Source of the DNA: a virus
Reading direction: 5' to 3' (one strand)
Length of the DNA: 63,683 nucleotides
IMG/VR virus record: IMGVR_UViG_3300045988_129598
The notes under the pieces are model-generated. The model searched no databases, was not told the origin of the DNA, and saw nothing but the letters and a program-made list of their open reading frames with translations. Within the stretch, counting starts at the first letter, position 1. The number at the start of each line of letters is the position of its first letter. A program made the position numbers and the translations under genes. Positions 503 to 36,910 of this stretch are shown here, piece after piece.

Positions 503-527
503 GATTTTCTCCTTTCATGAACTCTCT

Positions 528-552
528 ATCATAAGAAATGTTAATTCCGCGA
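528..552 (-). promoter_or_regulatory. TCGCG-N14-TATGAT motif copy
   Basis: Minus strand TTCGCGGAATTAACATTTCT-TATGAT-AGAGAG overlaps the holin stop codon, upstream of gene 164..502. Confidence 0.4.
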
Positions 553-1193: not shown

Positions 1194-1204
1194 GCCATCA
1201 CCTC

Positions 1205-1588: not shown

Positions 1589-1593
1589 TGCTT

Positions 1594-2163: not shown

Positions 2164-2178
2164 CGTTGTTCACCTCCA

Positions 2179-2586: not shown

Positions 2587-2603
2587 AAATATACCTCCTA
2601 AAA

Positions 2604-2640
2604 GAGATAGGGAGAGATCTCCGTATTAGAAATCTCTCCC
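2604..2640 (-). terminator. hairpin downstream of gene 2649..3431
   Basis: GGGAGAGAT-N13-ATCTCTCCC stem followed by a weak T-run (TATCTCTTTT). Confidence 0.4.
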
Positions 2641-2648
2641 ATTTTGAT

Positions 2649-3431: not shown

Positions 3432-3454
3432 AGGATGACCTCCTAAAAATAAAT

Positions 3455-3505
3455 ATTAACAACAGAAAAGAGACCCTTCCGGCCGCGCGCTCCGTTAAAG
3501 TCTCT
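3455..3505 (-). terminator. GC-rich hairpin upstream of gene 2649..3431
   Basis: Minus strand AGAGAC...GGAGCGCGCGGCCGGAAG...GGTCTCT followed by TTTCTGTTGTT. Confidence 0.4.
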
Positions 3506-3544
3506 CTGCGTTGTCGCATTATTTCATTCGGTCTGTCATACCCC

Positions 3545-3766
3545 TTAGAGCGGGATATGAAGCTGATTCTTAAAGTATTCCGTGGCCATGCCGACCGCCT
3601 GTTCCTTTGAAACCCCATAAGTTTTACAAAGGTTCATGGCGATTTGCTGACCCTTTTGTGCATCTCCGCTCTGAATGACCTGAAGCATTTCCTGTGCTCT
3701 CGGGTTATTCGCGATATTCGAATTTTGCATTGCCATATTCAAAAGCATAGACATCGGATTATTCAT
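3545..3766 (-). CDS. hypothetical protein
   Basis: 73-aa ORF whose start overlaps the end of the upstream gene. Confidence 0.5.
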   Translation of the reverse strand: MNNPMSMLLNMAMQNSNIANNPRAQEMLQVIQSGDAQKGQQIAMNLCKTYGVSKEQAVGMATEYFKNQLHIPL

Positions 3767-4214
3767 GAGCTACATCCTCCTTCTTCGGACTTCCATTTTG
3801 ATGATTGGAACGGTTCGGGTTATAAGGTTTACCAAGCCGCTTTTCCAATCGAACAAGTCGTTCCAAAATATCGTCGAGCTTCTTTTCGGCATTAGAGCCC
3901 TCGACTTTATCGGATGTAGTGTCCGGTGCGGGAACAAAGACTCGACCTTCGATCAAGCCATTGCTACCCCACCATTTGACAAAAATTGCTTGCCCATCGT
4001 CTTTTGGAAAGAATGACACACCGCCATCCATAACGATATCGTTTGGACGAATATCATTTTCGCTCGCCACTGACCGCCCTCTCAAACTGAGCTGACGGTT
4101 TTGGGAAGCGGGCTCCATGTATGGATTGGCCGGAATCTGAATAGACTGTTGAGGCATCTGATAAGGATACATTCCTTGATACCCCACTGGTCTATTATCC
4201 GGATATCGCTGCAT
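3759..4214 (-). CDS. hypothetical protein, Pro/Gln-rich N-terminus
   Basis: ORF 3759..4232; ATG at 4214 follows TTGAAAGGAG. The MKGEHN extension in the track is the RBS read as codons. Confidence 0.6.
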   Translation of the reverse strand: MQRYPDNRPVGYQGMYPYQMPQQSIQIPANPYMEPASQNRQLSLRGRSVASENDIRPNDIVMDGGVSFFPKDDGQAIFVKWWGSNGLIEGRVFVPAPDTTSDKVEGSNAEKKLDDILERLVRLEKRLGKPYNPNRSNHQNGSPKKEDVAHE

Positions 4215-4249
4215 ATTGTGCTCTCCTTTCAAAGATTCAGTTCAGTCTA

Positions 4250-4381
4250 TTACTCCTCAGCCAGTTCCGGGAGACCGGATTCCACCAGCAGCTCCTTCAC
4301 CTGGGGCTTGAGCTTAGCCGGGACGTTCTTAAATTCGGTTTTGCCAAGGATTACGCGCTGTGCAAAAAACATTGCCATCAT
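4250..4381 (-). CDS. small hypothetical protein (43 aa)
   Basis: ATG at 4381 follows GAAGGAGGTGA. The upstream part of ORF 4250..4462 overlaps gene 4431..4820. Confidence 0.45.
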   Translation of the reverse strand: MMAMFFAQRVILGKTEFKNVPAKLKPQVKELLVESGLPELAEE

Positions 4382-4430
4382 GATCTCACCTCCTTCGCCC
4401 AAAAATAAAAGAAAGAGCCCCCATAAGACA

Positions 4431-4820
4431 TCATGCATAGATGATCGCCGCCATTTCTGCAATGCAATCTTCGAGGAACTCGTTTCTGTCCGTCAATGCC
4501 TGAATTCTGGCATTCGTTAGTGTTTTTTCTTTTTCTTCTTTGGATGGTTCCGGATCAGGTTGATTTGTATAATCGGTATCCATCTCAGCCTGCGTTCTCT
4601 GGACAATCACGCCGTCAACAAATTTGTAACGATATATGCCTCGATCGTCGATGAGCGGATATGTCAGATAATTGTTCTGGGCATGATGATATCGATCTCC
4701 AGTACCGACATCAACAACCGTCCAACCCGTTTCATCTGAAATGAATGCATCAGAATTGATGTCTGTTACTCGACTTGCATCGTCAACCCGCACCAGCACC
4801 TTATAAAGCCCTTCGTCCAT
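4431..4820 (-). CDS. hypothetical protein downstream of tail fibre (fibre accessory?)
   Basis: 129-aa ORF with RBS AAAGGAGGG, positioned directly after the fibre gene. Confidence 0.55.
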   Translation of the reverse strand: MDEGLYKVLVRVDDASRVTDINSDAFISDETGWTVVDVGTGDRYHHAQNNYLTYPLIDDRGIYRYKFVDGVIVQRTQAEMDTDYTNQPDPEPSKEEKEKTLTNARIQALTDRNEFLEDCIAEMAAIIYA

Positions 4821-4832
4821 GCCATCCCTCCT

Positions 4833-5789
4833 TTACAGATCGGCAGAAATATCAATGTCGCCCTGCGGAGTAATCGTGCCCGTGCATACGCCCGTTACAG
4901 ACACCGGGCACTTGACGATGACGCGTTCCGTCCCGGCTCTGTGCTGCGTGCCGGTTTCCACCGACGTTTGCTGTGTGCTGCCCAGCGTGTAGAAAAACTT
5001 CCCGCTGAACGTCACCGTCGGCACAATCCGCATCGCCTGAGTCAGCGGAATAAACGCGTAGGCGATGCCGCTCGCGGCGTATCCGACGAACGTCTGCGAA
5101 TCGCCCTTGATCTTCCGATAATACCGCAGACACTCGGCCAGTTCCTCCGCGTATCCTTTCGGCACATACGGCGGCAGGGTTTCCGCCGTGTATTCGCCCT
5201 CATACAGGGCTGCCCACTGAACGATTGCTGCCGTTCCCGTACTGTCGGTATCAGGTGAAATATAAATGTTCACCACTTCATCGCCAGTTAGACTGCTGGG
5301 CTTCGTCAACTTTAGAACCAGCGTGCGCTCTGCCGGATCACCTTGAAAATAGCCGGGATCGCCAAAATTTACAGTACCGCTGCCGATATATGCATATAAT
5401 CTGCATGCAACTGGAAAAATGCCATGCACCGCAAGCGTCATCGTATCAGCAAATCGTTTTGCTTCGATTCTCTGCTGGATACCAGCAACCCAGTCCGATT
5501 TGTCGGATACAACTTTCAAACCGTTCGAGACAAGGGAAACCGTAGCGCCCGTTGTTCTGTTCCAGCGATCGATTGCATATGCAGTCGAACCATGAAGGCC
5601 GCCGACTCCTGCTTGTGCAATCGGATTCAAAAAATCGCTGTTATTCAACAAATTCGCAGGCTGAATATAATATTCCGGCATCTTTCCTCCGAGTCTGGCT
5701 GAATCGTATGCTTTATCGTTTTTGCCAAGAAAAGCACCCTTGATTTTTGCCCAGAGGTAAGTCAAACCACCTCCATCCAAATAAGCCAT
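4833..5789 (-). CDS. tail fibre / receptor-binding protein
   Basis: N-terminus MAYLDGGGLTYLWAKIKGAF shares the G-L-x-YLW-x-KIK motif with fibre gene 6086..7732. RBS GAAGGAGG. Confidence 0.6.
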   Translation of the reverse strand: MAYLDGGGLTYLWAKIKGAFLGKNDKAYDSARLGGKMPEYYIQPANLLNNSDFLNPIAQAGVGGLHGSTAYAIDRWNRTTGATVSLVSNGLKVVSDKSDWVAGIQQRIEAKRFADTMTLAVHGIFPVACRLYAYIGSGTVNFGDPGYFQGDPAERTLVLKLTKPSSLTGDEVVNIYISPDTDSTGTAAIVQWAALYEGEYTAETLPPYVPKGYAEELAECLRYYRKIKGDSQTFVGYAASGIAYAFIPLTQAMRIVPTVTFSGKFFYTLGSTQQTSVETGTQHRAGTERVIVKCPVSVTGVCTGTITPQGDIDISADL

Positions 5790-6085: not shown

Positions 6086-7732
6086 TTAAATACCCTGTAA
6101 AAAAACTTCGTACTTGTGCATTGCTCTCTTATGCCCATCCTCGTTGAGGTGATAACTGTCTTTCATTGTCAATGCGTTTACCTGATAACTATTTGAAAAA
6201 TCTAACGCGCCATTAACAGTATTATCAAAAACAGGTATTCCACCAAATTTTTCACAAACTTCATGAATTGCAGTTACGTATTGTTTACATATCTCAGTAG
6301 TTGCAAATCCAGCATTTCTGATATATGGAGTAATAAAACAAATATTTCCTGACGGATATGTCTGTATTAGACGTTGACAAATCGCATTTAAAGCACCGTA
6401 AAAAGTTTGAGACGTTGCATCATCGATCGTTCCAAGAGGGCATTGGTCATTTCTTGCTATGTCGTTTGTTCCCCCAAAAACGATAATATAATCAGCCTCT
6501 ACAGGATTGTTAAGATTGTTCATTACTTTTGCATGAACACTGTCTGTATCTAAAAAAGTCGCGCCACTCATTGTCGTTGTTTTTCGAGTTATAGTAGTAC
6601 CATTTTGCGCAAAATTGGTTAAAATCATGCCGTGCTTTTCAGCAAGAAGCTTTGTCCAAACGCTTTCTGGAATCGTGTGACCATATGCCATACTGTCTCC
6701 AAATACAACCAATTTTTTTTCATGTAATACGTCAATCAAATTACTCTTTGGTGTTTTGCGTTTGACTGCTTTTTTTCGAAAAACCTCAGGTTTTCCCTTG
6801 GAACTCAGTCGAGAGACATACAGCTTAGTCGCCCCTTCGGGAACAGTAACCTCAATATTTGTTTTATCTACGAGACCCGATAAAGATTCGTCATAATAAT
6901 GATAAATGGTTTTATTTCTATCATCCGTAAAAGTAAATCCCCAAGAAGTTGTGGTATTCGCAACTGTTGACGAAATATATAAAGTCTCTCCAACTACTAC
7001 ATTTGTCAGTGTTGCAATGCTTGAATTAGATTGCTCTTGAATCGCAATATAAGTAGAAGTATATAATGTTTTTCCGTCCTCAACAATAGGATTCGTGTTG
7101 ACAAGTTCTTCTGTTGTGGTAGTGTCAAAAACCGCATTGTCTATCTCACCTAAATCGTCCCTTAACTGATTAAGCTCGCCAGCAGGGGCCGCATCAATGT
7201 TTGATCTTGCCTGCGCCTTTTGTGTATCATCAAGTATCTGTGGCGTATACAGCACGGATTCCTGTGGCGCATTCGTGTCCTTATAATAAGGAACGCCACC
7301 CACAATCGGAACCGGAGTATAGCCGTGCACGTCCGTAACTGAACTCGTCGTCTTTACGCCACCCAGAGAGCTTCCGGCAGTCGGCAGAGTATACTTATTT
7401 GCGCCTTCCGCAATACCAGCCAACTTTTCCTTTTCGGCTGTGGTGAAGTCGTTAGTCGAAAGCTGCTTGTCGGCTACTTTGTCAACTTTTGTCGAATCAT
7501 GCGGGTGAACGTGATCTCCACGGGCAAACGTGATTTCACTGCCTGCATTCGGAGTCCCGTTTTCCTTAGGTAGCGTATTACTGGCTACCGTGCCTTCCGG
7601 AACATCGTCGATCGTGATAAACTTACTGTCGTTTGTGAGCTGACTGACTTTGGTCGGAAGCACACTCCCCACATAAGTCTTGATCTTACCCCACAAATAA
7701 AGTACGCCATCGCCATTCAGAAATTTGCTCAT
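6086..7732 (-). CDS. tail fibre with C-terminal SGNH/GDSL hydrolase domain
   Basis: Fibre motifs LYLWGKIK, GDHVHPHD, STNDFTTAEKEKLAGI. C-terminal SGNH blocks VVFGDSMAYGH, FGGTNDI, DSYHLNEDGH. Confidence 0.8.
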   Translation of the reverse strand: MSKFLNGDGVLYLWGKIKTYVGSVLPTKVSQLTNDSKFITIDDVPEGTVASNTLPKENGTPNAGSEITFARGDHVHPHDSTKVDKVADKQLSTNDFTTAEKEKLAGIAEGANKYTLPTAGSSLGGVKTTSSVTDVHGYTPVPIVGGVPYYKDTNAPQESVLYTPQILDDTQKAQARSNIDAAPAGELNQLRDDLGEIDNAVFDTTTTEELVNTNPIVEDGKTLYTSTYIAIQEQSNSSIATLTNVVVGETLYISSTVANTTTSWGFTFTDDRNKTIYHYYDESLSGLVDKTNIEVTVPEGATKLYVSRLSSKGKPEVFRKKAVKRKTPKSNLIDVLHEKKLVVFGDSMAYGHTIPESVWTKLLAEKHGMILTNFAQNGTTITRKTTTMSGATFLDTDSVHAKVMNNLNNPVEADYIIVFGGTNDIARNDQCPLGTIDDATSQTFYGALNAICQRLIQTYPSGNICFITPYIRNAGFATTEICKQYVTAIHEVCEKFGGIPVFDNTVNGALDFSNSYQVNALTMKDSYHLNEDGHKRAMHKYEVFLQGI

Positions 7733-8247
7733 TTCAATAGCTCCTCCAAATCTTCATTCGTCAGAGCTTTGACGTTACCGACACTCTCGGCGGCATCTTC
7801 TGCTCTTTTAGCTGCATCAGTCGCTTTCGTCGCGGCCTCTTCCGCTTTTTTTCGAGCGACTTCTGCTTTTTCCATCCAGTTATCTATTCTGTCAGGTTTT
7901 TGCCCTCCGTCGGGTAGACTTCTGCTAATTTCCATAGCTGCTACTGCCGTCTTGATCTTACTTCCTGTCGGAGATATCAACGACAGTTGCAGCTCGCCTC
8001 GACCTTCCTTAGCTGTGTCGGAATCGCTAATAGACCAATGCAATTTGTCGTCTATCGTCTCGGTTACAGCCGGATATGCTGCTTTTTCATCCGGAGGCCG
8101 AACTTTTAAAACGGCAGTCGCGCCTGGAAATTCAAGTAGAATATCATGGAGATCGACGATCAAAGTGCTTCGATCCTCTTCTCCAGCGTAGCCGAGCCAT
8201 AAAACTCGTTTGCCAAATGTTTCAAAGGTCTCGTCTATGGATCGCAT
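7729..8247 (-). CDS. tail/baseplate-associated structural protein (hypothetical)
   Basis: 172-aa ORF between two fibre genes, with ATGA overlap to the next gene and an Ala/Glu-rich coiled C-terminus. Confidence 0.5.
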   Translation of the reverse strand: MRSIDETFETFGKRVLWLGYAGEEDRSTLIVDLHDILLEFPGATAVLKVRPPDEKAAYPAVTETIDDKLHWSISDSDTAKEGRGELQLSLISPTGSKIKTAVAAMEISRSLPDGGQKPDRIDNWMEKAEVARKKAEEAATKATDAAKRAEDAAESVGNVKALTNEDLEELLK

Positions 8248-8249: not shown

Positions 8250-9032
8250 TTATTCCCCCTCGGCAGATGCTATTGCAGAATCGATCAACTCATTAGTCAG
8301 GGGAACTATATCTCGATTCCGAAATTCGACGTCGAGCACCTCGTCAATATTTTCAAGACTTCCTGTGTCTCCGCGTGGGATCGTAAGCTTCAGTGCAATG
8401 CTTTTCCCCGTACCCGTTTGCTCAACTACAGCATTCGTTCCTGGTAAACCGGTTTCAACTGTGAATGTAATATTCGGAACAAAGTCATTATTGTCTAATT
8501 TTGTCTGAACTGTTTCAGCAGCAGTATTTGCCTTACTGGTCGCTGTATTGGCATTGTTGGTTGCGGTATCAGCATTTGACGCAGCAGTATTTGCTTTAGA
8601 AGTTGCTTCGTTAGCTTTGGTTGTTGCCGTATTAGCATTGCTCGTTGCAGTATCAGCATTCGACGCAGCAGTATTTGCTTTAGAAGCTGCTTCATTAGCT
8701 TTGGTCGTTGCGGTATTAGCATTCGAAGCCGCTGTATCAGCCTTGGTTGCGGCATTGTTGGCTTTCGTTGTCGCCGCATTTGCATTACTAGCTGCTGTGC
8801 CAGCTTTTGTCGCCGCATCGTTAGCCAGTTTTGCTTTGGTGTCAGCATTTGATGCAGCCGTATTTGCTTTACTGGTTACTGCATTGGCATTCGAAGCCGC
8901 TGTATCTGCTAAAGTTTTCGCATTACTGACATCCGTATAGCATTGCTCGATCGAATCGTGGATAGCATCGCGAACTTCTCGGCCATAAATAGCTGTCTTA
9001 ATTTGAGCGAGGTATTCACTGATCTTGCTCAC
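8250..9032 (-). CDS. fibre protein with Ala/Asn/Thr heptad repeats
   Basis: GTG start after GGAG. About 20 units of TAASNAN / TATTKAN / EAASKAN. N-terminus YLAQIKTAIYGREVRDAIHDSI. Confidence 0.6.
   Translation of the reverse strand: MSKISEYLAQIKTAIYGREVRDAIHDSIEQCYTDVSNAKTLADTAASNANAVTSKANTAASNADTKAKLANDAATKAGTAASNANAATTKANNAATKADTAASNANTATTKANEAASKANTAASNADTATSNANTATTKANEATSKANTAASNADTATNNANTATSKANTAAETVQTKLDNNDFVPNITFTVETGLPGTNAVVEQTGTGKSIALKLTIPRGDTGSLENIDEVLDVEFRNRDIVPLTNELIDSAIASAEGE
8500..8900 (-). repeat. 21-nt coding tandem repeats inside fibre gene
   Basis: Repeated gcagcagtatttgctttaga / gttgc(g/c)gtattagcatt units. They generate the spurious Ala-rich ORFs seen in other frames and on the other strand. 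Confidence 0.8.
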
Positions 9033-9036: not shown

Positions 9037-9360
9037 TCACTCCGTCCTGTTCCGACTCATCCAAGCGTCAAATCCATCAGGATAACGCTTTTTAAGCTTA
9101 TCAACATTCATCTGAAATACTTCTTGCATGGTAACGCCGAGTCCCTGACAGGCAAGTGCGATATACCATGCGACGTCACCGAGTTCTTTCATGATGGCAT
9201 CTTTATCAAGAATATGTCCCTGATAATTGGCTTTCTTTACGAGATCTGCCACTTCACCAGCCTCTCCAGTCAAACCGAGAGCAGCATCGATAAGCATCTG
9301 CTGGCGGTCCAGTTCCGGAGCAGTTCGCATAGCGGCACGATGATAATCATTTACAGTCAT
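9037..9360 (-). CDS. mazG: MazG-like nucleoside triphosphate pyrophosphohydrolase
   Basis: YHRAAMRTA...GLTGEAGEVADLVKK...KELGDVAWYIA is the typical MazG EExxE/D core. RBS GAAAGGAG. Confidence 0.8.
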   Translation of the reverse strand: MTVNDYHRAAMRTAPELDRQQMLIDAALGLTGEAGEVADLVKKANYQGHILDKDAIMKELGDVAWYIALACQGLGVTMQEVFQMNVDKLKKRYPDGFDAWMSRNRTE

Positions 9361-9431: not shown

Positions 9432-10163
9432 TTAACTCAAAAGTTTGTTCCACGTTTTCTTTCCTACAATGCCATCCGCTTTAAGTCCGTTAGCTTCTTG
9501 AAAGGCTGTGATGGCTTTAAGCGTTCGACTGGCATACTTTCCGGTAGCAGACAGGACGTAGCCTCGATTGATGAGCATCTGCTGCATAAGCTTTACATCG
9601 TCACCCTGCATACCCCATTTAATGACTCTATAATTTCCAACCGTAGATGGAGTGTCAATGTCGTCTTCGATCGGGTCAGGCACCGCCCCAACAGTAGGAT
9701 AATCGACACCTTTGAGTTCACCCCAGCAATGCCATTGACTGAGTTTGCTCGTAGTCACGCCGTAAAGGGTGCTCTTGGCTTCGATAATAGTTTTATCTCC
9801 GATATACAGACCGGTATGATAATAATCATCGTCTCTGACTTTGAATACAGCGGTTCCAGGAAGAATCTTTGCCATGGCCTCTTCGGTGAGTGTGCCTTTT
9901 GTCGTACACCACTTTTTCCACATCGTATTGCTTCCGTGATACATCTTTCCGCCAAGTTGTTTAAATGCCCAAGAAAACAACCCACTGCAATCGGCTACTT
10001 TATGGCCAACCCACTGCTGGCCGTATTTGATAGCCATCTCATTCTTGGTATTATCTTGATCTTTTTGTGTCCATTCGCCGCCAGCTTTTCCAAGAATGTA
10101 TCCCCAATTATTGTCAAGAGCATATTGAAACTTTTCGATAAGCTGCTCCGGTGTAATACTCAT
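9432..10163 (-). CDS. endolysin: NlpC/P60 peptidase + PG_binding_1 domain
   Basis: Catalytic context VADCSGLFSWAF...YHTGLYIG. C-terminal GDDVKLMQQMLINRGY...FQEANGLKADGIVGKKTW. RBS AAAGGAGG. Confidence 0.85.
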   Translation of the reverse strand: MSITPEQLIEKFQYALDNNWGYILGKAGGEWTQKDQDNTKNEMAIKYGQQWVGHKVADCSGLFSWAFKQLGGKMYHGSNTMWKKWCTTKGTLTEEAMAKILPGTAVFKVRDDDYYHTGLYIGDKTIIEAKSTLYGVTTSKLSQWHCWGELKGVDYPTVGAVPDPIEDDIDTPSTVGNYRVIKWGMQGDDVKLMQQMLINRGYVLSATGKYASRTLKAITAFQEANGLKADGIVGKKTWNKLLS

Positions 10164-10185
10164 GAGTATTCCTCCTTTTTTTTAG

Positions 10186-10220
10186 ATATAAAAATAAGAG
10201 ACCATGCTTTCATGGTCTCT
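10186..10220 (-). terminator. strong intrinsic terminator between promoter-like motif and endolysin
   Basis: Minus strand AGAGACCATG-AAAG-CATGGTCTCT (10-bp stem) followed by TATTTTTAT. It lies downstream of motif 10243..10267 and upstream of the lysin RBS. Confidence 0.7.
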
Positions 10221-10225
10221 CGAGA

Positions 10226-10269
10226 CGTATTCTATCTCCTCTATTATAGCATATGTTCTTGACGCGAGG
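10226..10269 (-). promoter_or_regulatory. extended promoter/leader element (44 nt, copy of 36867..36910)
   Basis: Minus strand CCTCGCGTCAAGAACATATGC-TATAAT-AGAGGAGATAGAATACG. It matches 36867..36910 at 41 of 44 nt and contains TGn-TATAAT. Confidence 0.55.
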
Positions 10270-10377
10270 CTATTCTTCCATTTTGAATTTTGATAAGCAC
10301 CTGCCGTCAGTTTGCTTATGAAAATTAAACAGAATATTCGGCGCAAAATTGGTCGATTTTGTTCCTTGGTAAGGATG

Positions 10378-10410
10378 AGGTCGCCGGTTCGAATCCGGCC
10401 ATCAGCTCCA
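10378..10410 (+). other. tRNA 3'-end fragment: candidate attP core
   Basis: AGGTC-GCCGG-TTCGAAT-CCGGC-CATCAGC-T-CCA gives a variable loop, T-arm, 3' acceptor strand and CCA. No matching 5' half (GCTGATG) lies upstream. It sits 67 nt from the integrase stop. Confidence 0.6.
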
Positions 10411-10412
10411 CG

Positions 10413-10455
10413 AAAAACCCTTAAGTTTCTTAGAAAACTTGAGGGTTTTCTTTTT
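10413..10455 (+). terminator. terminator following the tRNA fragment (also usable for int on the minus strand)
   Basis: AAAACCCTTAAGTT...AACTTGAGGGTTTT then TTTTCTTTTT. The single non-Watson-Crick pair is U-G in plus sense. Confidence 0.65.
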
Positions 10456-10476
10456 ATACTTCGACAAGGTTAGACC

Positions 10477-11655
10477 TCATCCGTCAGCTTTTGTTCCGTT
10501 TCGTGTTCCATAGACGTTCATTTTTTCCTTTGCCTGCCTATACAATTCGGGTCGATATTTGACGTATCTTTGTTCCGTAACTTCTGTTTTCTGATGCCCA
10601 AGCAGCCTGGCGATCATATCGATCGAAATGCCAGATTCACGCCACTCAGTTGCACAAGTGTCTCGGAAGTCATGCGCAGAGTATTCCTTTACATCGCACA
10701 TATCGCGAATTCGATCGAAAGCCTTCTTTGCTTCTGTATAGCTCATGGGCGTCTCCCGTTTTAAGTCTTTGTAGCTATACAGTATAAATCCGGTTTGTTC
10801 TCGTGGCGCTAACTCTGCCATGAGATTATTTGGAATTGGAATATAGCGATCATGCCCGTTCTTTGTAGACTTCACTTCCGGCAGATTTCGCTTTGGGTGT
10901 ACGACCGCCCGTCGAATGTGGATATAGTCTCGCCCTACATCGATATCTTCCCAGCGTAGTCCAAGAACTTCTTCCATTCGCATACCCGTAGAGCATAACA
11001 GCGCCGCCATGCGACGTTCTCGCACGTCCATAATGGGGATACGTTCACGGACGGCAGCGATCTTCTCCGGCGGCAAAGCCTTATGATGCACGGTCGCTTT
11101 TCCTTCAATTTTAAGTCTGGAAGAATGCAGCGGATTCCTTTCAATATATCCGTCTTCTACAGCGCTGTCAAAAGCTGGAGACATGATGTTTTTAATCTTC
11201 AAGATAGTTTCTTTCGAGTATTCTTTCGCCAGTTCATTGAACCAAAGTTGAATATCCCCTGTGCTGATTGCATCGATAGGTACATCTCCAAATTTGGGCA
11301 TGATGTGATTCTTGATCATCCGATCCCGATTGACCATCGTTGAAGAGCACTGGTTCGACTTATAAGTACGAATATATTCCTTCAGATAATCTCCGAACTT
11401 TACTGTCTTTTCTCTTCCATTTTGATTTTCCGGTTCAGAGGACTCGAACAACTTTCTGTAGTTCTCCAGCATATCTCCGATGTTTGCACCTGTTACCCAG
11501 CGTTCTTTTCCGTGGACTGTTACAAGTTGCTTCAGTCGTTTAGCCATATCATTTTCTCCTTGATCTGCGTCGAATATTCCGTTTTCAAGGAGCATAACGG
11601 TTAGCATCAGTGCCTGATATACCTCATCCATAGTGTACAGTCTAGCATTGCTCAT
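10477..11655 (-). CDS. int: tyrosine integrase
   Basis: 392 aa. Catalytic signature: R in STGMRMEEVLGLRW, HDFRDTCAT (H-x-x-R), LLGHQKTEVTEQRYVKY (H...Y). Confidence 0.9.
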   Translation of the reverse strand: MSNARLYTMDEVYQALMLTVMLLENGIFDADQGENDMAKRLKQLVTVHGKERWVTGANIGDMLENYRKLFESSEPENQNGREKTVKFGDYLKEYIRTYKSNQCSSTMVNRDRMIKNHIMPKFGDVPIDAISTGDIQLWFNELAKEYSKETILKIKNIMSPAFDSAVEDGYIERNPLHSSRLKIEGKATVHHKALPPEKIAAVRERIPIMDVRERRMAALLCSTGMRMEEVLGLRWEDIDVGRDYIHIRRAVVHPKRNLPEVKSTKNGHDRYIPIPNNLMAELAPREQTGFILYSYKDLKRETPMSYTEAKKAFDRIRDMCDVKEYSAHDFRDTCATEWRESGISIDMIARLLGHQKTEVTEQRYVKYRPELYRQAKEKMNVYGTRNGTKADG

Positions 11656-11684
11656 GTCAACCTCCTCTATTTTTTAGATTTTCC

Positions 11685-11713
11685 TTGACATTTACTGTGG
11701 CTGCGAGTATATT
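11685..11713 (+). promoter_or_regulatory. canonical sigma-70-type promoter
   Basis: TTGACA (11685-11690), 17-nt spacer, TATATT (11708-11713). Divergent from int and drives micro-gene 11773..11937. Confidence 0.65.
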
Positions 11714-11721
11714 ATCTCCGC

Positions 11722-11744
11722 TCTCATACAGAAGCCGCTCAAGG
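11722..11744. repeat. left arm of 23-nt inverted repeat
   Basis: TCTCATACAGAAGCCGCTCAAGG. Its reverse complement occurs at 11952..11975 with one extra T. Confidence 0.85.
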
Positions 11745-11772
11745 CTATCTTTCACAGAAAGGAGGTGATGCC

Positions 11773-11937
11773 ATGAATGTGGGCTTCTCTTGCCCCGGTA
11801 AAAAGGGCAATACTGTCTACGGTACCGCAGCGTTGCTTCGGAAGATGACCGTCGATCTTGATACCGCTAAAAAGGTTCAGGAGGTAATGGACAATGAACA
11901 GAAGAAAGTTCACAAAACTTCATCTAAAGTCCAGTAA
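11773..11937 (+). CDS. 54-aa protein of unknown function (plus strand)
   Basis: Below track cutoff. GGAGGTG lies 6 nt before ATG. Product MNVGFSCPGKKGNTVYGTAALLRKMTVDLDTAKKVQEVMDNEQKKVHKTSSKVQ. Has its own promoter. Confidence 0.5.
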   Translation: MNVGFSCPGKKGNTVYGTAALLRKMTVDLDTAKKVQEVMDNEQKKVHKTSSKVQ

Positions 11938-11951
11938 TTTACTCGGATTCA

Positions 11952-11975
11952 ACCTTTGAGCGGCTTCTGTATGAG
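11952..11975. repeat. right arm of inverted repeat
   Basis: CCTTTGAGCGGCTTCTGTATGAGA, 15 nt after the micro-gene stop. Confidence 0.85.
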
Positions 11976-12030
11976 AACGAAAAATATCCGGCTGTCACGG
12001 TCTATTGCTAGGCTTGAATTCCACACTCGA

Positions 12031-12192
12031 TCATTTCGTTTCGCCGACTTCCGAAGAAGCGGTTTCTTTAGAAATCATATTGTTCAGAAACGTGATTGAT
12101 GCGTAAAGCATGCTTAGATTCTGCTCACCATGTACTTCGATATTGTTTAAAGTCTTAATGACTTTCAGAATATCATTTTTTTCGACTTGCAT
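12031..12192 (-). CDS. 53-aa hypothetical protein
   Basis: Below track cutoff. ATG overlaps the stop region of gene 12194..12559 (TGATATG). Product MQVEKNDILKVIKTLNNIEVHGEQNLSMLYASITFLNNMISKE... Confidence 0.35.
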   Translation of the reverse strand: MQVEKNDILKVIKTLNNIEVHGEQNLSMLYASITFLNNMISKETASSEVGETK

Positions 12193-12193
12193 A

Positions 12194-12559
12194 TCAGTTC
12201 TCCCTCACAATCGCAATAGGCTCATAAACAAATTCGTGGAGATTGTCTGCATCCACTCCAAAGTCCAGATACATCCGTTTTACGCCGTAAACCTGAGCCA
12301 TATGGTCTTCAAGGCGACAACCCGCCGACTGATAGTAGCATGGTAGGAAGAAACAGACGTCTGCCTGACTCATGATTTCCGTGCATTTCGCCATATACTC
12401 AAGCGGCGTAAATTTAGAGGTATCATAATCTTCAAAGTATGTCGGCAAAATCTCACAGTCGGGATAGTAAATCTGAGCGACTTTAATGCCGTTTTCCCGA
12501 TCGATCTCGATCTGTTCTTTAGTCAGTCCTGCCATCGGCTGAGAAATATAAACCTTCAT
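12194..12559 (-). CDS. DUF4406-like (nucleoside 2-deoxyribosyltransferase-like) protein
   Basis: MKVYISQPMAG... and ...QADVCFFLPCYYQSAGCRLEDHMAQVYGV match the remembered DUF4406 pattern (MKIYIAGPMTG; W-x-x-S-x-G-x-x-x-E). Confidence 0.55.
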   Translation of the reverse strand: MKVYISQPMAGLTKEQIEIDRENGIKVAQIYYPDCEILPTYFEDYDTSKFTPLEYMAKCTEIMSQADVCFFLPCYYQSAGCRLEDHMAQVYGVKRMYLDFGVDADNLHEFVYEPIAIVREN

Positions 12560-12572
12560 TGCACTTCTCCTA

Positions 12573-13148
12573 TCAAATCTTTAATACGGTAGCAGTTGCC
12601 GTTGTGAGCGTTGCTTTTTTTAGACTCACTCTGGTTGCTTTGGAAGTATTGTAGAATCTCGGATTCGCGCTTGATGGTGCGTATACCACTTGCTTGCCAA
12701 CAGTCGTTACCGAGCTTCCCTCTTGGTACAAAACATCATCGTATTCGACCGCCGATACGGACTCTCCCCTTGGATAAACCGTTGTAGAGCTCGCCGTGTA
12801 GTATACCATTTTACGTGTTGCCGTTCGTTGATAAGTTCCACTGGATGAGGCTTCCAAATAGGTTTTTGTATCAGATGCGCCTTGCTTTGTAACACCGCTG
12901 GTGTTTCCTCTATAAAACGTATCGGGCCAATGTGCCACGCCTATCTTCTTCTCCGACGTTCCCGCCAAATAGACATTGCTGTTCGCTGCATTGTTTCCGT
13001 CAGAATCCGTAAGACTGGACGCAGTATAGTCCATCCAAACCTGGGACGGCGTGTATCCAGTCCCATTCATATCCGTGATGGACGATGCGACGTAATTGGT
13101 ATATAGGGTCGGCAGTTTATCGTAACCTTCGATTGCTCTATGTGCCAT
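12573..13148 (-). CDS. Ser/Thr/Tyr-rich repeat protein, unknown function
   Basis: 191-aa ORF with five Y-x-A-S-S-like repeats (NYVASSITD, DYTASSLTD, YLEASSSGT, YYTASSTTV, VYAPSSANP). Weak RBS. Confidence 0.55.
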   Translation of the reverse strand: MAHRAIEGYDKLPTLYTNYVASSITDMNGTGYTPSQVWMDYTASSLTDSDGNNAANSNVYLAGTSEKKIGVAHWPDTFYRGNTSGVTKQGASDTKTYLEASSSGTYQRTATRKMVYYTASSTTVYPRGESVSAVEYDDVLYQEGSSVTTVGKQVVYAPSSANPRFYNTSKATRVSLKKATLTTATATVLKI

Positions 13149-13406
13149 ACCTTTCGGTGTGGCGAGGACTATCTCACCAAGAAAATACTTCCATTTTGAA
13201 TTTTCTCAGGCCTGCCGCTTTGGCCGAAGCCTACTCCCCCGCCGGGGATAGTCTCTGAACATTACCCTGTTCGGGTCTTAGCTGCGCTGATTGTCCAATC
13301 CTTATCGATTTTTAGAGCATTCGCACTCAGGCTTCTTTCATCCTCATGCTGTAGCTGATAAGGCTCTAAGGAGTTCCCCGCAATTCAACAGGTCCGCGCC
13401 GAGAAT
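13149..13406 (-). other. 258-nt GC-rich structured non-coding region
   Basis: No ORF. Minus sense contains GGC-UUCG-GCC, CCCC-GGC-GGGG, ACCC-GAACA-GGGU, and long-range stems UUAGAGC/GCUCUAA and GAGACUAUC/GAUAGUCCUC. Confidence 0.4.
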
Positions 13407-15287
13407 TTAGTTGAAGGTGATTGTGTCTCCATAAGCTGGCGTGTATGTTGTTGGGACAAATGCCTCACTCGTTCGAAGAAACGTAACATACTTGTCACCT
13501 TCAAGATGAATCCCATAAGTTGACGCCTGCGTAAAATCGGTTACGACTTTGACTTGACCTTTAGTTACTGTGCTGCCGCCAAAGGTCATCGTTTTGACTT
13601 CCAAATATCCAATGTCCGCGCTGTTCGTGGTGAGAGCAGCCGTCTTGACGTAGCCGCCATCAAGCAATTTGATAATCGCGCTTGAAGTGACAAGACTATC
13701 CACATATGCTTTTTTAGCATAAAGATTTTCGATATTGGTGATCTCACTGTTGATGTTGGTGATGTCCGTATCAATATCGAGAACGCTTTTCTTCAAGCCG
13801 TCAATATCTTTAATCGACAGCTCGATGCTTCCGCGAACATCGTTAATTTCATCGGACACGTCGGCTCGAATGGAACTGTCCGTCTGAGAGATTTTAGTCT
13901 CCAGACCTTCTTTGGTGTTCTTGATCTCAGATGTTAGAGATCCTTCCATCTGTGTAATCGTCGAAGACAGCGTGTTCAATTTGTTATGAACGTTTTCGAT
14001 GATCTTGCCGTCGCCAACCGTTAAAGCGGCAGTGATCTGCCCAAGCGTGCCCCCGGGCAGACTTTCGAGATTGACCACCTTGTCCTTGATCGTAAGAACG
14101 CCGTTCACCTCGGTGATAAACTTCTCAAGCAAACTTGCCGCCGCAGCACCGCCTGCACCGCTTCTCTTTGCAGAGCTCGCTGTTGAGGATGTACTTGCAC
14201 TGCTGCCGGTGAGCGTTCGATCTTTCCGAAGCGTGATCTGGTTCGGATCAGTCAACGTATATTGGGTTTTGGAAGGGTCTTTGATGTTGACCTCGATTGC
14301 AGTGCAGATCAGAATCCTCTCGACACCATGAATGGGAGATTTTACTGTGATGGAATCGCCCAGATTAAATGGCCGAACCGTCGGATAGAATCGGTGCAGA
14401 TCGATTGCTTTGATGCTCAATTTAGGAGGAATGCCTTTATAGTTATCGGTCATGTACTTCTCGGCTTTTTCCATCAAAGTTCCCGCATCTGTAATGTCAC
14501 CGAAATCTTCAGTCTTTACAATTCGTCCATAGATAGCAATCGCTTCTGCATTTTCAAGATACTTCCCATTATGCGTGTACTTTTGGGAATCTCCGGCGGC
14601 TTCAATCGTAAGCTTGTCTTTTCCGATCGGAAGTAAAACTGTGAACAGATCTTCTCCTGTCTGCTCATTCATCAAGTCAATCAGGTTCTGTCCAAATTCG
14701 ATCGTTTGTGAAGATGTTGCATTGTAAGACTTCAAATAGTCGATGCATCGAATTCCATTTTCGTATCGAATTCGCAAATATCCGCCAAAGGAGTCGATCA
14801 AGTCAGACTGAATTGCGGAGAATGTTTCTCGATAATTGTCTTCGCCAAAGATATGTGACTCGGCCTTCTCGTCAATCTCAATACTGCCAACTGTGAACTT
14901 TTTCGTATCTTCGACTTGAGCATTGTGGGAATCAATGAGAAGCCGAAAATGCTCCTCGGCGGTCCTTGTCCCTTTTGACGGACCAAAAATGGAATCAACC
15001 AAATAGGCAAGTGTTCCTTCACAATAAACCTTGCGCTGCTTATACGTATCGGCATTATTTCTTAGAACACGACTTGAAAAAATCAGCTCTTCATCACGAT
15101 ATACGTCAATCCACGTCTTCATGGCTGGAAGCATATCGTAAAATAAATGTCTTGGAAGCATGGTAAATTCAACACTTCCGGCCTTGTTGACTTCCATTTT
15201 GATAATCGGACTGATCAGTTGATAATCGGGGTCGGCCCAATCGCTCGCGAAAATAAGCTCGTCGTTTGCATAGAGTCGATAATTCAT
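13407..15287 (-). CDS. tail-associated lysin/Tal-type distal tail protein
   Basis: 626 aa directly after Dit. N-terminus MNYRLYANDELIF...MEVNKAGSVEFTM is typical of siphovirus Tal/prophage-tail-endopeptidase N-domains. Coiled C-terminal part. Confidence 0.65.
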   Translation of the reverse strand: MNYRLYANDELIFASDWADPDYQLISPIIKMEVNKAGSVEFTMLPRHLFYDMLPAMKTWIDVYRDEELIFSSRVLRNNADTYKQRKVYCEGTLAYLVDSIFGPSKGTRTAEEHFRLLIDSHNAQVEDTKKFTVGSIEIDEKAESHIFGEDNYRETFSAIQSDLIDSFGGYLRIRYENGIRCIDYLKSYNATSSQTIEFGQNLIDLMNEQTGEDLFTVLLPIGKDKLTIEAAGDSQKYTHNGKYLENAEAIAIYGRIVKTEDFGDITDAGTLMEKAEKYMTDNYKGIPPKLSIKAIDLHRFYPTVRPFNLGDSITVKSPIHGVERILICTAIEVNIKDPSKTQYTLTDPNQITLRKDRTLTGSSASTSSTASSAKRSGAGGAAAASLLEKFITEVNGVLTIKDKVVNLESLPGGTLGQITAALTVGDGKIIENVHNKLNTLSSTITQMEGSLTSEIKNTKEGLETKISQTDSSIRADVSDEINDVRGSIELSIKDIDGLKKSVLDIDTDITNINSEITNIENLYAKKAYVDSLVTSSAIIKLLDGGYVKTAALTTNSADIGYLEVKTMTFGGSTVTKGQVKVVTDFTQASTYGIHLEGDKYVTFLRTSEAFVPTTYTPAYGDTITFN

Positions 15288-16009
15288 TACAAACTACCTC
15301 CTCTATAATCGATGCTGAGCGTTCCACTTCCGGAAATCGTAATTCTGTTTTCTCCGCTTCCGAATGTGATGCCATAGATCTTATGCGTCCCCTTCTTGAT
15401 GGGAAACGTTGATCCATTAAACACCGCAGTCATATCCGAAGTCGCCGTAAAGATGGGCGAAATACGGGCTTGCTCACCAACGATTGTAAACGTATACGTG
15501 CCGTCGATTTGAAGGAGCTTGTAGTTCTGGATAATGCCCGTTTCGAAATTGAACGTATCCCATATCCATTCATCCAACGTTCCGATGACATTGTACTTGT
15601 ATGGATCAACGTCGTAGTTGATTACTATGGAAGAATGTTTTTCTGAAGACTTCCATGCATCAACTGAGAAACGCCCTTCGTAGAAATAGGTGGGGTCATC
15701 CGTAAGAATTGCCCGTAAGAACTGCCCATGCAGATAATTTGATATCTCGGAATAAACCGTAGCCCAGTTCTTCCAGTCCGGGTCAACCACAAATTCAAAG
15801 GAACCGTTTCGATTTTTAAAAAGAGGATACCCGGAAAGAATTTCTGAAATGTCGATTCCGCCATTCATTCCGGGTATGTCGATGAAGTTGGTCTTCACTT
15901 CTGGTGGATTAAAAACGGGGCGGGAAGCGGGAATAAGGTGCCAATCTTTCCAGCTATCCTTATTCCCGAAGATAACCGAGTGTTCTCCATCGTATTGACT
16001 TACGTACAT
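15287..16009 (-). CDS. distal tail protein (Dit)
   Basis: 240 aa between tape measure and Tal, with TGATG/TAATG coupled starts. This is the position typical of Dit. Confidence 0.6.
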   Translation of the reverse strand: MYVSQYDGEHSVIFGNKDSWKDWHLIPASRPVFNPPEVKTNFIDIPGMNGGIDISEILSGYPLFKNRNGSFEFVVDPDWKNWATVYSEISNYLHGQFLRAILTDDPTYFYEGRFSVDAWKSSEKHSSIVINYDVDPYKYNVIGTLDEWIWDTFNFETGIIQNYKLLQIDGTYTFTIVGEQARISPIFTATSDMTAVFNGSTFPIKKGTHKIYGITFGSGENRITISGSGTLSIDYRGGSL

Positions 16010-19000
16010 CAGTTACCCCTTCCTTTCATAATCGTTCTTTCTCCCAAAGTTTTGTCTATATCACCAGCGATTTGACCCACGAGCGCTCCACTGTCGAGTA
16101 CAACCTGCATCCTCGCAATTCTTTGGCCTAGTTCTTCGATCTGATTATTCACGTTGCCGATCGCGTTCACGATGGATGCATAGTCACTTCCATTTTGATT
16201 CGGAATGGACTGCTCGGTCCGATCGGCGAGTTGAACTGTACTGACGCCATTAAGCGTAATCACTCTGCCTCCGAAAAGGCTGTTGATTCCACCGATTCCG
16301 GACTGAATATTGCTTGCATCGAGCACAGGCGTGATCGTTGGCGCAAAACTCATATCTGAAGACATAACTTCGCTGACTTTGGCAACAATTCCCTTAGCGG
16401 TGTCAACGGCATTCTGACTAGACTCTCTTGCAGCATCGCTTACAAGACTGGCATAATGGTTCAAACCGTTAGCCATGCCCATATCCCAATACATGCCGAG
16501 TTCCGCGCCAATTCGAGAAGGACTGTTGATCGCCAAAGTTTGCCGTGAAGCTTTGACGGCAACGGAAGCAACGTATCTGGCAGCATTTGCCACACGCCAG
16601 TCTCCACTAAGAATGCCATTAGCCAACCCCATGTCAAGGTATTCGCCTGCCGAATGGAAATCCGTATAGTAGTTTCGCAGTTCGGTTGTCATGGAAGAAA
16701 CCAAAGAAGTAATTCCCGTTGTAATACTTGTCATGACGCTGGACGTAAAGATCCCATCTTTGAATTTCTTTCCGAGCGATTCGAGCGAATTGGAATCGAC
16801 CAGCGAAAGATCCTTCAAAGCGTTTGTAGCAGATCCGACGATTCCGGAATCGAACCCCGCGAGATCGTCAGAGAATAGTTTAAGCTTTTCGCCAATACCT
16901 CCGCCTTTACCGTCATGAAGACTATTTGCGAATGTTTGAAGCTGAAGTACGTTACCGGCAAGATTCAAGTTGGTGTCGGCGACGGCCAGCTTTTGCAGGA
17001 TTGTCGCCGCCTGGGAAGCAACTGTTGTGTTCTTTACGCCGTCGAGCGCTTTGCAGAAAGCCGCAAGGCCTGTTCCGAGCGGTTCAAGGTTATTGCCAAG
17101 ATCGGAGAGATTTTGATCGCCTGTAAACCATGCCAGAACGCCTCCATGATTGGTAAGTCCTCGATCAATAGCTGCAAAGATCGAAAGCGCATTTGCTGCG
17201 GATGTTACCTTTCCTGAATCGACATTCTTCGTTTTTTCGGAGAAATTGTAAAGTCCTTCGCCTATGGCATTAACACCAGTTGCAAAGCTGGTAAGCGAAG
17301 AATCGCCTGTGAAAAAGCCGAACAGGCTCCCATGATTGCGAAGCCCCCACTCAAGCGTGCTCAGCAACCGAAGTGAACCGATGGCGTTTGTTACCTTGTT
17401 CGAATCAATACCGCTTGTTTTTTCAGCAAAAGCAGCAAGACCGCCGCCGATATCGGCCACAGAAACTGAGAAGGTATCGAGACTAGAAATACCTGTAACG
17501 GTCTCGAAAATACCGCCATGATTCTTAAGCGTCGTCTCCAGTTCACTGAGCATTCCTAAAGACACGATGGCATTGTTCACGTCGTCTCGATTAACTCCGG
17601 ATGCGCTGTTACCGAAAGAAACCAACGCTCCTCCAAGTGAAACCAGTCGCGCAGAGAATATACTCATGGAGTTTTCTTCAGGCAAAGCACTGAGTCTTGT
17701 CGTCAGATTATCTGGAAGATTCTCTATAAGAGAAGACAGCAACGCGGTCGCGTTTTGAACTCGCGCATCGGCTTCCTTTCCGTTTAATCCGGAATCGGCG
17801 GAAGCAAAGAGTGTAAGCGCGCCGCCCAGATCGGTAATATAGCCGATAAAATCCTGAATATTGGCGAATTCTGTTGTGCTGACTTGTGTGAGAATATCAA
17901 GCAGGCTCTGGATCGCTTCAACCCTCGGTGCAATCGATTCGCTCGTCACGCCGTCTGAATTGGCGATAAACAAACCAAGTGCTGCGCCCATCTGGCTCAA
18001 ATTGCCGGAGAAGGTGATAAGCGCCGTGCCATCAGAAGCGGGAACGGACGCCACAAGGCTGAACAGCGTCTCAAATATCTGTTTTAGTTCGTCAACGCGA
18101 TCGCTGTCCACGCCGTCCATCGAACTCACAAATCCGGATATCATGCCGCCTGCCAATTCAAGAGCGCTGGAAAGTTGTACCAAGGCACTTGAGATGCTAT
18201 CGGACACCAAATCAAGAACCAGTCCAAAGACAGCCCCTAAAGCAAGAATAGCAGCTGATAGAAGTCCAATGGCTTTAAGGCCGGACGCGAACGGCATATT
18301 GGCTAGAATGGTCATAACGCCTGTAAGCGTCAGAGCGATAGCGGATAACCCTACACTGAATGCCGCAATGGTTTGCCATGGAACATCTTTGATATAATCA
18401 ATGCAGCCTGCAAAAACAACCATGACAGCAGCCATGGCAATAATTGCTGGAAGGGCTTTCTTCGGATCAGTTTTTTCTGTCAGCTTCAAGAATGCGCCCA
18501 AACTGAGCATGATGGCGACCAGACCGCCGACACCCTTTATAAGGGTCCCTGTATCAAGACTTCCGAGTATGGCAATAGACGCAACGAGAACAAGTATTCC
18601 GATGGCCAGGCCTTTGATATCGCCAGCAGATTTTTCGAGGTCGAGAGTTTTGACTGCGAACAAGAACGCTGCTATTCCGCCAAGAATGACCGCCATAAAT
18701 CCCATACCTTGCCAAATTTTTCTAGCATCTAAGTAGCCCAAAATGGCAATAGAGGCAGTCAACATCAAGATTCCCTTCGCGAGATTTTCGATCTCACCAG
18801 CAGATTTATCGAGACCGAGGGTTTTAACTGCAAATAAGAAACCCGTTATACCTCCAATAATGGCCGCCATAAATCCCATACCTTGCCAAATCTTTCCAGC
18901 ATCTAAGTAGCCTAAGATCAGAATCGATCCAGCCAGCATTAGAATGGCTTCACCGATGCCCTTAATCTGGTCACCAACCTTAGCGGTATCAGGGAACTTT

Positions 19001-35881: not shown

Positions 35882-35885
35882 AACT

Positions 35886-36866: not shown

Positions 36867-36910
36867 CGTATTCTATCTCCTCTATTATAGCATATGTTTT
36901 CTACGCGAGG
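36867..36910 (-). promoter_or_regulatory. extended promoter/leader element (copy of 10226..10269)
   Basis: Minus strand CCTCGCGTAGAAAACATATGC-TATAAT-AGAGGAGATAGAATACG, directly after the helicase stop. Followed by hairpin GATAGAATA/TATTCTATC (36851-36877). Confidence 0.55.

Follow-up and report, generated by a model that had tools for sequence, protein, structure and literature searches.

The stretch of DNA analysed here, IMG/VR virus record IMGVR_UViG_3300045988_129598 (63,683 nt, hereafter the window), is a circular temperate siphovirus-like genome from the human gut. Its terminal 99 nt are identical at the start and at the end, which gives a circular assembly of ~63.6 kb, and its minus strand holds nearly all the genes. 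The integrase gene (int) and the phage attachment site (attP) stand among the late genes, and two copies of a 44-nt element head the two halves of this divided set. The copies co-evolve, and the reading that we favour, with moderate confidence, is that they are paired and co-regulated promoters, productive only when the terminator behind each of them would be overridden. The two copies and the signals that follow them are located as listed here.

10226-10269, minus strand: copy B, with a putative extended -10 TGCTATAAT (10250-10243) and a -10-like TAGAAT (10234-10229).
10187-10221, minus strand: predicted intrinsic terminator of copy B, ~15 nt after the predicted start, followed by a ribosome-binding site (RBS) and by the endolysin ATG at 10163.
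36867-36910, minus strand: copy A, with two hairpins (36877-36831), then a U-run, an RBS, and the ATG at 36801 behind it.

The original prediction placed a duplicate of the 44-nt sequence and a terminator after attP, and both were recovered. Copies B and A are identical at 40/44 positions (32 nt exact), the 27-nt core gives 2 matches versus 0.00 expected, and a hairpin with a U-run follows copy B at 10221-10196. Read on the minus strand, both copies consist of CCTCGCGT, four variable bases, AACATA, TGCTATAAT, AGAGGAGA, TAGAAT, and ACG. The succession TGCTATAAT-N8-TAGAAT, hairpin and U-run, AGGAGG RBS, and start codon is also common to both, and the identity between them reaches from ~-37 to ~+10 relative to the predicted start, a length that matches a polymerase footprint. 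The hairpins have folding energies of -18.4 kcal/mol for copy B (z -4.2) and -19.5 kcal/mol for copy A (z -4.8). Each copy can thus be read as a promoter of the extended -10 kind, then another -10-like hexamer, and then an intrinsic terminator. The earlier term "late leader" is too simple: copy A heads a unit with a nuclease, an exonuclease, and an RNA-polymerase-like gene ~6 kb before the terminase. In full, the copy A unit includes genes for a VRR-NUC-type endonuclease, an exonuclease, a 947-aa polymerase candidate, HNH, terminase, head, and tail proteins, and the copy B unit the endolysin, MazG, fibre and esterase, and holin genes.

Relatives, named here by locus handles (e.g., L019), were then compared. 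The integrase is listed in 57 blocks of public assemblies, on contigs of ~60-63 kb mostly from human gut metagenomes, and in the phage collection the sole match was an unannotated faecal "Bacteriophage sp." fragment. Every full-length relative carries exactly two copies of the element, and the search for further copies, or for the element in other phage groups, found none beyond this lineage. In L018 and L023, copy B has the copy A spelling at all four positions that distinguish the two. In a divergent clade (75-83% identical), one and the same base between the hexamers is missing from both copies (TATAATAGAGG-GATAGAAT), the copy B terminator stem carries a compensatory A-U to G-C change, and the -10 and TAGAAT are conserved. 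The shared, clade-specific 1-nt deletion indicates that the copies co-evolve. This concerted change is the best evidence that the same machinery would read both copies and it excludes a passive scar; in its pattern of change, the duplicated element behaves as a functional pair.

The position of copy B relative to the integration genes is informative in this regard, and the features that define it are given below.

10292-11721, unstranded: integration cassette (tyrosine integrase, terminator, and attP), delimited by the homology break against serine-integrase siblings.
10477-11655, minus strand: tyrosine integrase of 392 aa (PF00589, E 3e-24; PF14659; PF22022; phrog_1, E 3e-60).
10275-10291, minus strand: 17-nt motif AAAATTCAAAATGGAAG, at the downstream cassette boundary, which includes one copy of a strand-specific 12-mer.
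11719-11742 and 11956-11979, unstranded: 24-nt inverted repeat with arms 96% complementary (RNA fold z -5.9).

Siblings that are ~95% identical on both sides (four IMG/VR contigs and many ENA contigs) have 10292-11721 swapped for ~2.0 kb; in L004 and L007-L009, homology ends at 11722 (in L004, at 11957) and restarts at 10291. The replacement codes for an 86-aa open reading frame (ORF) and a 581-aa large serine recombinase (L004, L007-L009, L031, and L043-L049), with Resolvase, Recombinase, and Zn_ribbon_recom domains in L031 and L043-L049. The downstream boundary is the first base of AAAATTCAAAATGGAAG (10291), a motif whose like also occurs directly after attP in divergent relatives and in L065, and the upstream boundary is either arm of the inverted repeat. 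A third cassette, with a 343-aa tyrosine integrase and the same tRNA-Thr core, is present in the more divergent phage L062. The cassette had been drawn larger, with an "S/T/Y-repeat protein" ORF, a DUF4406 gene, and a micro-ORF included; only 10292-11721 is swapped in siblings, and those three are present with either cassette and are thus backbone genes. With its fixed boundaries, the tyrosine-serine swap illustrates cleanly how integration specificity is exchanged in nature as a module.

Some further loci with related integrases were recorded. L026 carries at 430-5160 a 4.4-kb island (resolvase, DUF6291, and a 343-aa integrase) with tRNA-Thr core repeats at its flanks, in tandem with a prophage end; the integrase and the hairpin of this island are the cassette of the free phage L062. 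In one divergent relative (L059, 23-1573), a DDE (IS630-like) transposase ORF adjoins a truncated tyrosine-integrase ORF, so that the integration module is apparently disrupted. L003 and L010, with integrases related at 49-50%, have unrelated contexts and were excluded from use; L003, an unrelated IMG/VR phage (49% integrase similarity), contains at 2374-3952 a HEARO RNA (128 bits) followed by a 434-aa ORF, an IscB-type arrangement.

No more than 25 nt separate copy B from the downstream cassette boundary (10291), and short repeated sequences are common at phage module junctions. Both points would suit a passive duplicate, i.e., a functionless leftover of cassette insertion or of recombination between regions, close to the scar that the original prediction offered as an alternative. 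Nevertheless, copy B stands outside the exchanged segment and is unchanged beside tyrosine and serine cassettes, and in L031 it is somewhat diverged but retained. The -10, TAGAAT, and the compensated terminator stem are kept in relatives only 75-83% identical, the clade-specific changes are common to both copies, and copy B is correctly positioned ahead of an RBS and a start codon. The passive-duplicate explanation is largely refuted, and we regard it as very improbable.

The site at which the genome opens was examined through attP and the integrated forms.

10363-10410, plus strand: attP core, corresponding to the 3'-terminal 48 nt of tRNA-Thr(GGT) (anticodon loop through CCA), identical to the complete tRNA at the L019 junction.
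10414-10449, unstranded: bidirectional terminator hairpin (z -3.0 on the minus strand, -4.9 on the plus strand), which ends int on the minus strand.

The tRNA-fragment attP, previously placed at 10378-10410, is real and longer: the identity to the tRNA-Thr(GGT) of L019 covers the 48 nt of 10363-10410, and ARAGORN found no complete tRNA in the window. At the int-side junction of L019, int is followed by the 10414-10449 hairpin, the complete tRNA-Thr(GGT), a tRNA-Pro, and host genes (HMA/DsbD, FtrD-like, and ThiF). After integration, the hairpin would terminate the reconstituted tRNA-Thr on the plus strand. In L030 and L051, the assembly breaks exactly at the edge of the attP core. On the endolysin side of L026, a tRNA-Thr locus adjoins the phage arm that carries copy B, with only 13 nt of core (ATCCTTACCAAGG) at the junction, and on the int side of L020 non-tRNA DNA begins after ...ACCAA. 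These two partial junctions overlap in TTGGTAAGGAT, an overlap that would suit strand exchange within the anticodon loop, where integrases of this class usually act. In L060 and L061, the attP core upstream of the endolysin has a variant, compensated T-arm (GCCAG...CTGGC versus GCCGG...CCGGC), which would match the tRNA-Thr of another host.

In the serine-type sibling L048, agreement with the free phage L044 ceases ~109 nt short of the int stop codon, and host DNA (SASP, SH3, and purC) follows. The serine-type attP is thereby placed within the 3' end of the recombinase gene itself, at ~240 nt upstream of copy B, and the SASP gene points to a Gram-positive spore-former as host. The same comparison (L048, 7750-7810) shows that integration trades the C-terminal ~36 residues of the recombinase for 16 host-encoded ones, from 581 aa to 561 aa. 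Both cassette types thus open the genome just upstream of copy B, and the physical separation of the late genes is shown: as had been anticipated, the junctions of L019, L026, and L048 part the lysin, fibre, and holin genes from the rest of the late operon; one end of the prophage carries int together with the tail genes, and the opposite end carries copy B with endolysin, fibres, and holin.

In the distant phage L065 (endolysin 47% identical), the order is Dit, Tal, micro-ORF, an inverted-repeat pair, a tyrosine integrase, and a tRNA 3' fragment, followed by GTCAAAATGGCAG, a small ORF, two terminators, endolysin, and fibre. In L066, no integrase separates the tail-protein, endolysin, and fibre genes. 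The two orders indicate that an endolysin gene surrounded by tail and fibre genes and preceded by the integration module is an old trait and not a recent insertion; the tail-int-attP-endolysin-fibre layout is a lineage trait.

As stated above, we favour paired, co-regulated promoters. Integration opens the circle between int and copy B; according to this proposal, both copies would be recognised by one factor and fire together. Productive transcription would then require terminator override, either by an antiterminator loaded at a promoter-proximal pause or by a terminator-insensitive polymerase. A co-regulation of the copy A and copy B units is plausible. A candidate for such a polymerase is encoded by the phage itself.

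33071-35914, minus strand: YonO-like single-chain RNA polymerase candidate of 947 aa (phrog_4291, 1190 bits, full length), third gene after copy A.

The candidate ends in a sigma-region-4-like helix-turn-helix (HTH_23 and Sigma70_r4_2 at residues 908-942); its match to Pfam RdRP is only 15 bits, below threshold, and no relative was found in PDB. A 112-aa ORF at 51631-51969 weakly matches an internal part of phrog_4291. Downstream of the polymerase gene and a small ORF lies a GC-rich intergenic stretch of ~245 nt with several hairpins (32552-32797, minus strand), in a position like that of the unannotated non-coding RNA with which the SPbeta late operon begins.

Several observations weigh against the pairing of promoters or against its link to integration. 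The promoter call is a reading of TGCTATAAT: the -35 hexamer is not recognisable, and a consensus promoter scan therefore misses both copies. Among ~50 early and middle ORFs between 29 and 63.6 kb, many of which match no family, searches of PHROG and Pfam detected no Q-like antiterminator, sigma factor, ArpU-type protein, or late-activator family; with no Q-family protein detected, the system fails membership of Q-type antitermination on a defining feature. The junctions of L020 and L026 share just 11-13 nt of core with attP. The int-side junction of L019 is canonical, while a second one, with phage arm, full 48-nt core, and host, was absent: two metagenome scans gave free attP only, and one scan of a genome collection for attR or an empty attB gave only a 50%-identical integrase without a tRNA. 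The integrated form proposed for mapping in the original prediction is thus documented on one side, and a full-core attR was not found in these scans. Moreover, the 10414-10449 terminator follows the tyrosine int irrespective of integration, which weakens the idea that the copy exists because of integration. Lying 170 nt upstream of copy B, this terminator would make a new promoter necessary already, so that the split caused by integration is a plausible but not needed reason for the second copy.

A different route to the late genes would be read-through. The YonO-like polymerase, starting from another, unrecognised promoter, would transcribe on the excised circle from Tal through int, attP, and the terminators to the endolysin, fibre, and holin genes; the 44-nt elements would be "middle" promoters of the host polymerase or would mainly make terminated RNAs of ~50 nt, and would not couple lysis to morphogenesis. 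The strong YonO-family match at 33071-35914 is in agreement with this, as is the finding that YonO, from a promoter not yet defined, transcribes the SPbeta structural and lysis genes as a single operon (PMC5467207). Between 15082 and 10417 the minus strand yielded no terminator, strong terminators stand immediately behind both 44-nt elements, and a strand-specific 12-mer is scattered over the late region. Serine-type siblings have no terminator from int to copy B, which makes read-through possible there and counts against the paired promoters as well. On the other hand, the polymerase gene is itself downstream of copy A, and the copies co-evolve over a promoter-like footprint (~-35 to +10). 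The two halves of the prophage are also non-contiguous and would require prior excision, and terminator insensitivity of this polymerase is an assumption. On balance, we hold read-through to be less likely than the paired promoters.

A more specific form of the paired-promoter reading is that the twin modules are loading sites for an unrecognised late-transcription factor, duplicated so that the late regulon bisected by attP fires as one. This factor would be a new antiterminator family acting at a sigma-dependent, promoter-proximal pause, or the YonO-like polymerase with its sigma-4-like tail. We offer this version as speculative and rather doubtful. If true, with the modules as one device, a common human-gut phage lineage keeps its late regulon coordinated despite an attachment site that cuts through it, and the element is a compact late-promoter candidate in phages with YonO-type polymerases, whose promoters stay undefined. 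In the early region, clean hairpin terminators occur on the minus strand at 63394, 62271, 61937, 60781, and 60447, the first three with the tail TCTTTTT, and several early promoters have CTATAATAGAG in common with the 44-nt element; these suggest a possible antitermination-driven early cascade.

The 12-mer mentioned above, TCAAAATGGAAG, was found in 7 exact and 6 one-mismatch copies, all of them on the minus strand and none on the plus strand. The exact copies end at 16198, 15202, 13199, 11425, 10286, 9389, and 3801, and those with one mismatch are at 45603, 34872, 29975, 25422, 23034, and 2647 (all minus). Its 13-mer version has 8 matches versus 0.2 expected. The sites fall in TMP, Tal, and int in differing reading frames, in the P8 loop of an intron, before MazG, and at the cassette boundary; apart from the one just upstream of copy B and the one in the P8 loop, 11 further sites share the orientation. 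The motif is kept in divergent relatives although its flanks have changed, and a similar one follows attP in L065. It could be part of the same control system as the twin modules.

The 24-nt inverted repeat was also considered, together with two features at the same place.

11773-11937, plus strand: 54-aa ORF, a micro-gene within the inverted repeat.
11685-11713, plus strand: sigma-70-like promoter TTGACA-17-TATATT (11/12 consensus), directed into the micro-gene and antisense to the late direction.

The upstream swap boundaries fall on the arms, which enclose the 54-aa ORF. In L031 (6620-6760), the repeat is kept by two compensatory pair changes despite a different 69-nt insert, and L065 (5975-6115) has at the same place a 19-nt perfect inverted repeat of unrelated sequence. 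An invertible segment (inverton) was rejected: the 213-nt segment has one orientation in all 26 loci that carry it. The repeat could be an RNase III-type processing stem that splits late from int RNA, or a recombination hot spot.

Upstream of the integration genes, the gene for the tail-associated lysin/tip protein (Tal) is most likely split by a group I intron. The parts are as follows.

13407-15287, minus strand: Tal (PF06605; phrog_3558), read as exon 1.
13146-13412, minus strand: putative group I intron, IA-like with P7.1/P7.2 hairpins, with best-fitting in-frame boundaries that are not proven.
12573-13148, minus strand: ORF described earlier as an "S/T/Y-repeat protein", read as exon 2 (12573-13145), the C-terminal domain of Tal.

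The original prediction had here a 258-nt structured spacer. The structure is confirmed, but the spacer is identified as a group I intron: Rfam RF00028 matches 13145-13468 on the minus strand with 58 bits (gathering score 50, E 4e-12), and with 58 bits in L001 and L002 and 51 in L061. By inspection, P3 (CCUGUUG/CGGCAGG), P4, P6, and P7 (GACUAU/AUAGUC) are present and align to the model, with P8, a terminal GAAA-capped P9, and two extra hairpins between P7 and P3', the latter being a mark of IA-type phage introns. The core is ~81% identical to introns of Vibrio phage ICP1, similar to those of Lactococcus phages, and ~80% identical over ~100 nt to the intron splitting the tape-measure gene of Lactococcus phage AM8. 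P7.1, P8, and P9 show compensatory changes on both sides between the window clade and L032/L031, a modest support from one truly divergent sequence. The P8 loop contains the 12-mer that recurs elsewhere in the genome. The sub-threshold Rfam matches to FasX, PhotoRC-I, and tmRNA were set aside as chance or as effects of the tRNA-like core.

Likewise, the "S/T/Y" ORF is real but is hardly a gene of its own. It has no Shine-Dalgarno sequence (the sole purine run is 1 nt from the AUG, versus AGGAGG 6-8 nt upstream in neighbouring genes), and its AUG is base-paired in the covarying P9, the last hairpin of the intron. It has zero family matches in Pfam and PHROG, and its 12 homologues in a search of 5.8 billion proteins all (12/12) start where the intron ends (MAHRAIEGYD or MGLTAIEGYD), without a single fusion to Tal or to any other upstream sequence. 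Tal matches phrog_3558 only over profile positions 15-551 of 1047 (the first half), and L065 has an uninterrupted 1704-aa Tal with the micro-ORF directly after it. The paired AUG, the missing Shine-Dalgarno sequence, the starts of the homologues, the half-profile match, and L065 together led us to read the two ORFs as one gene: most likely, they are two exons encoding ~816 codons, which the predicted splicing would fuse. The coding constraint of Tal, measured as third-codon-position variation among relatives, extends to the Phe codon at 13413-13415. The only junction in frame and stop-free in all seven variants lies after this codon (13413) and after the G of the AUG (13146), in the form TTC|...AUG|GCA, with G13146 and G13145 terminating the P9 hairpin; the first six bases of the intron would then be a variable triplet and TAA. 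Another in-frame junction (U13409|G13145) was dropped as a general solution, since L032 would have two stop codons, and so was the P1 proposed by Rfam, a stretch that varies at third codon positions like coding sequence.

The same region may be read without splicing, with Tal stopping at the conserved TAA, the 191-aa ORF being a separate protein, and the ribozyme-like RNA, intergenic or decayed, merely processing or stabilising the transcript. Indeed, the TAA is kept in all seven variants (TAA TAA in L032), and the codon before it is hypervariable (AAC, ACC, AGC, GCT, TCT, or TAA), as expected for a C-terminal residue. In addition, neither a systematic scan for P1 and the internal guide sequence nor RNAalifold gave a credible P1 helix, the scan gave no U-G 5' splice site, and the 5.8-billion-protein search returned split ORFs only, with no contiguous, intron-less homologue across the junction. 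These points count against the two-exon reading. The C-terminal part of the L065 Tal is not homologous, so that it does not fix the junction, and the annotated ICP1 and AM8 homologues gave no help in this respect. The paired AUG and the poorly placed purine run, contrasting with the AGGAGG of the neighbours, are difficult to reconcile with a separate protein, one in-frame junction serves all seven variants, and an in-frame stop just inside the intron is usual in phage introns (PMC4124061). We therefore consider a separate protein improbable, and retain the two exons. In the gene that encodes the tail hydrolase of Staphylococcus aureus phage DW2, an in-frame stop lies just inside the intron (PMC4124061); there, as in the AM8 tape-measure gene, a small ORF-less intron with such a stop divides a tail gene into two ORFs. 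The window intron differs in having no known intron-less allele, no fixed splice sites, and a 12-mer in its P8 loop. In the speculative loading-site reading, splicing could in addition control how much short Tal is made relative to long Tal. In annotations, Tal and the next ORF should be merged across the intron, and attP placed at tRNA-Thr.

The minus-strand gene order given previously, from TMP, Dit, and Tal through int and attP to endolysin and holin, agrees with ORF coordinates and family matches. The remaining genes of this order are listed here.

16009-22236, minus strand: TMP (TMP_3 in relatives).
15287-16009, minus strand: Dit (phrog_33).
12194-12559, minus strand: DUF4406, nucleoside 2-deoxyribosyltransferase-like (PF14359, phrog_355).
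12031-12192, minus strand: 53-aa micro-ORF, recorded as a gene in every relative; L065 has a comparable small ORF behind Tal.
9432-10163, minus strand: endolysin, NlpC/P60 and PG_binding (PF00877, PF01471), first gene behind copy B.
9037-9360, minus strand: MazG.
8250-9032, 7729-8247, and 6086-7732, minus strand: fibre-like genes, with a GDSL esterase domain in 6086-7732.
541-870, minus strand: Dp-1-type holin (PF16938, E 1e-27), at the far end of the copy B unit.

Two other observations concern the early region. A 128-aa protein at 44959-45345 (minus) matches phrog_478 (recombination directionality factor; Pfam Phage_VG64) and belongs to the backbone under either cassette. Three paralogues of phrog_2152, a family of function not known, are spread over the early/replication region (46652-47641, 54922-55707, and 59654-60436, minus).

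Among known systems, the closest to the 44-nt modules are the lambdoid PR'/qut/tR' regions (lambda, 82, and 21). In lambdoid phages, Q-dependent late promoters carry another -10-like hexamer at the very beginning of the transcribed region, with a terminator close behind, and the window shares with them the strong -10, the second hexamer in the same place, and the promoter-proximal terminator. It differs in having no detected Q, two copies and not one, no -35, and a Gram-positive spore-former as host; its terminator is ~15 nt from the start versus tens to hundreds of nt in lambdoid phages, and, unlike them, it encodes its own polymerase-like protein. SPbeta is also a temperate Firmicute phage with a YonO-family gene upstream of structural and lysis genes, and the serine-type siblings use a large serine recombinase as it does. 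However, the SPbeta late genes form one operon, whereas those of the window are divided by int and attP, and the sigma-region-4-like helix-turn-helix tail sets the window polymerase candidate apart from YonO of SPbeta. Cluster J mycobacteriophages have a central int with its attP in a tRNA gene, and some of their capsid and tail genes contain group I introns (PMC3706429). As in the window, their attP is just 3' of a tyrosine int, its core overlaps the 3' part of a tRNA, and the cassette is mid-genome after the structural genes (PMC3706429); but their cassette divides two arms of distinct function and their lysis genes remain on the structural one, while in the window endolysin, fibre, and holin lie beyond attP under a duplicated promoter. 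Integration cassettes at a central position with tRNA cores, swaps between tyrosine and serine integrases, tail-gene group I introns, and promoter-proximal terminators are already documented. What is unusual is the combination: an attP that permanently bisects the late genes, a co-evolving promoter-terminator twin that heads each half, and a YonO-like polymerase.

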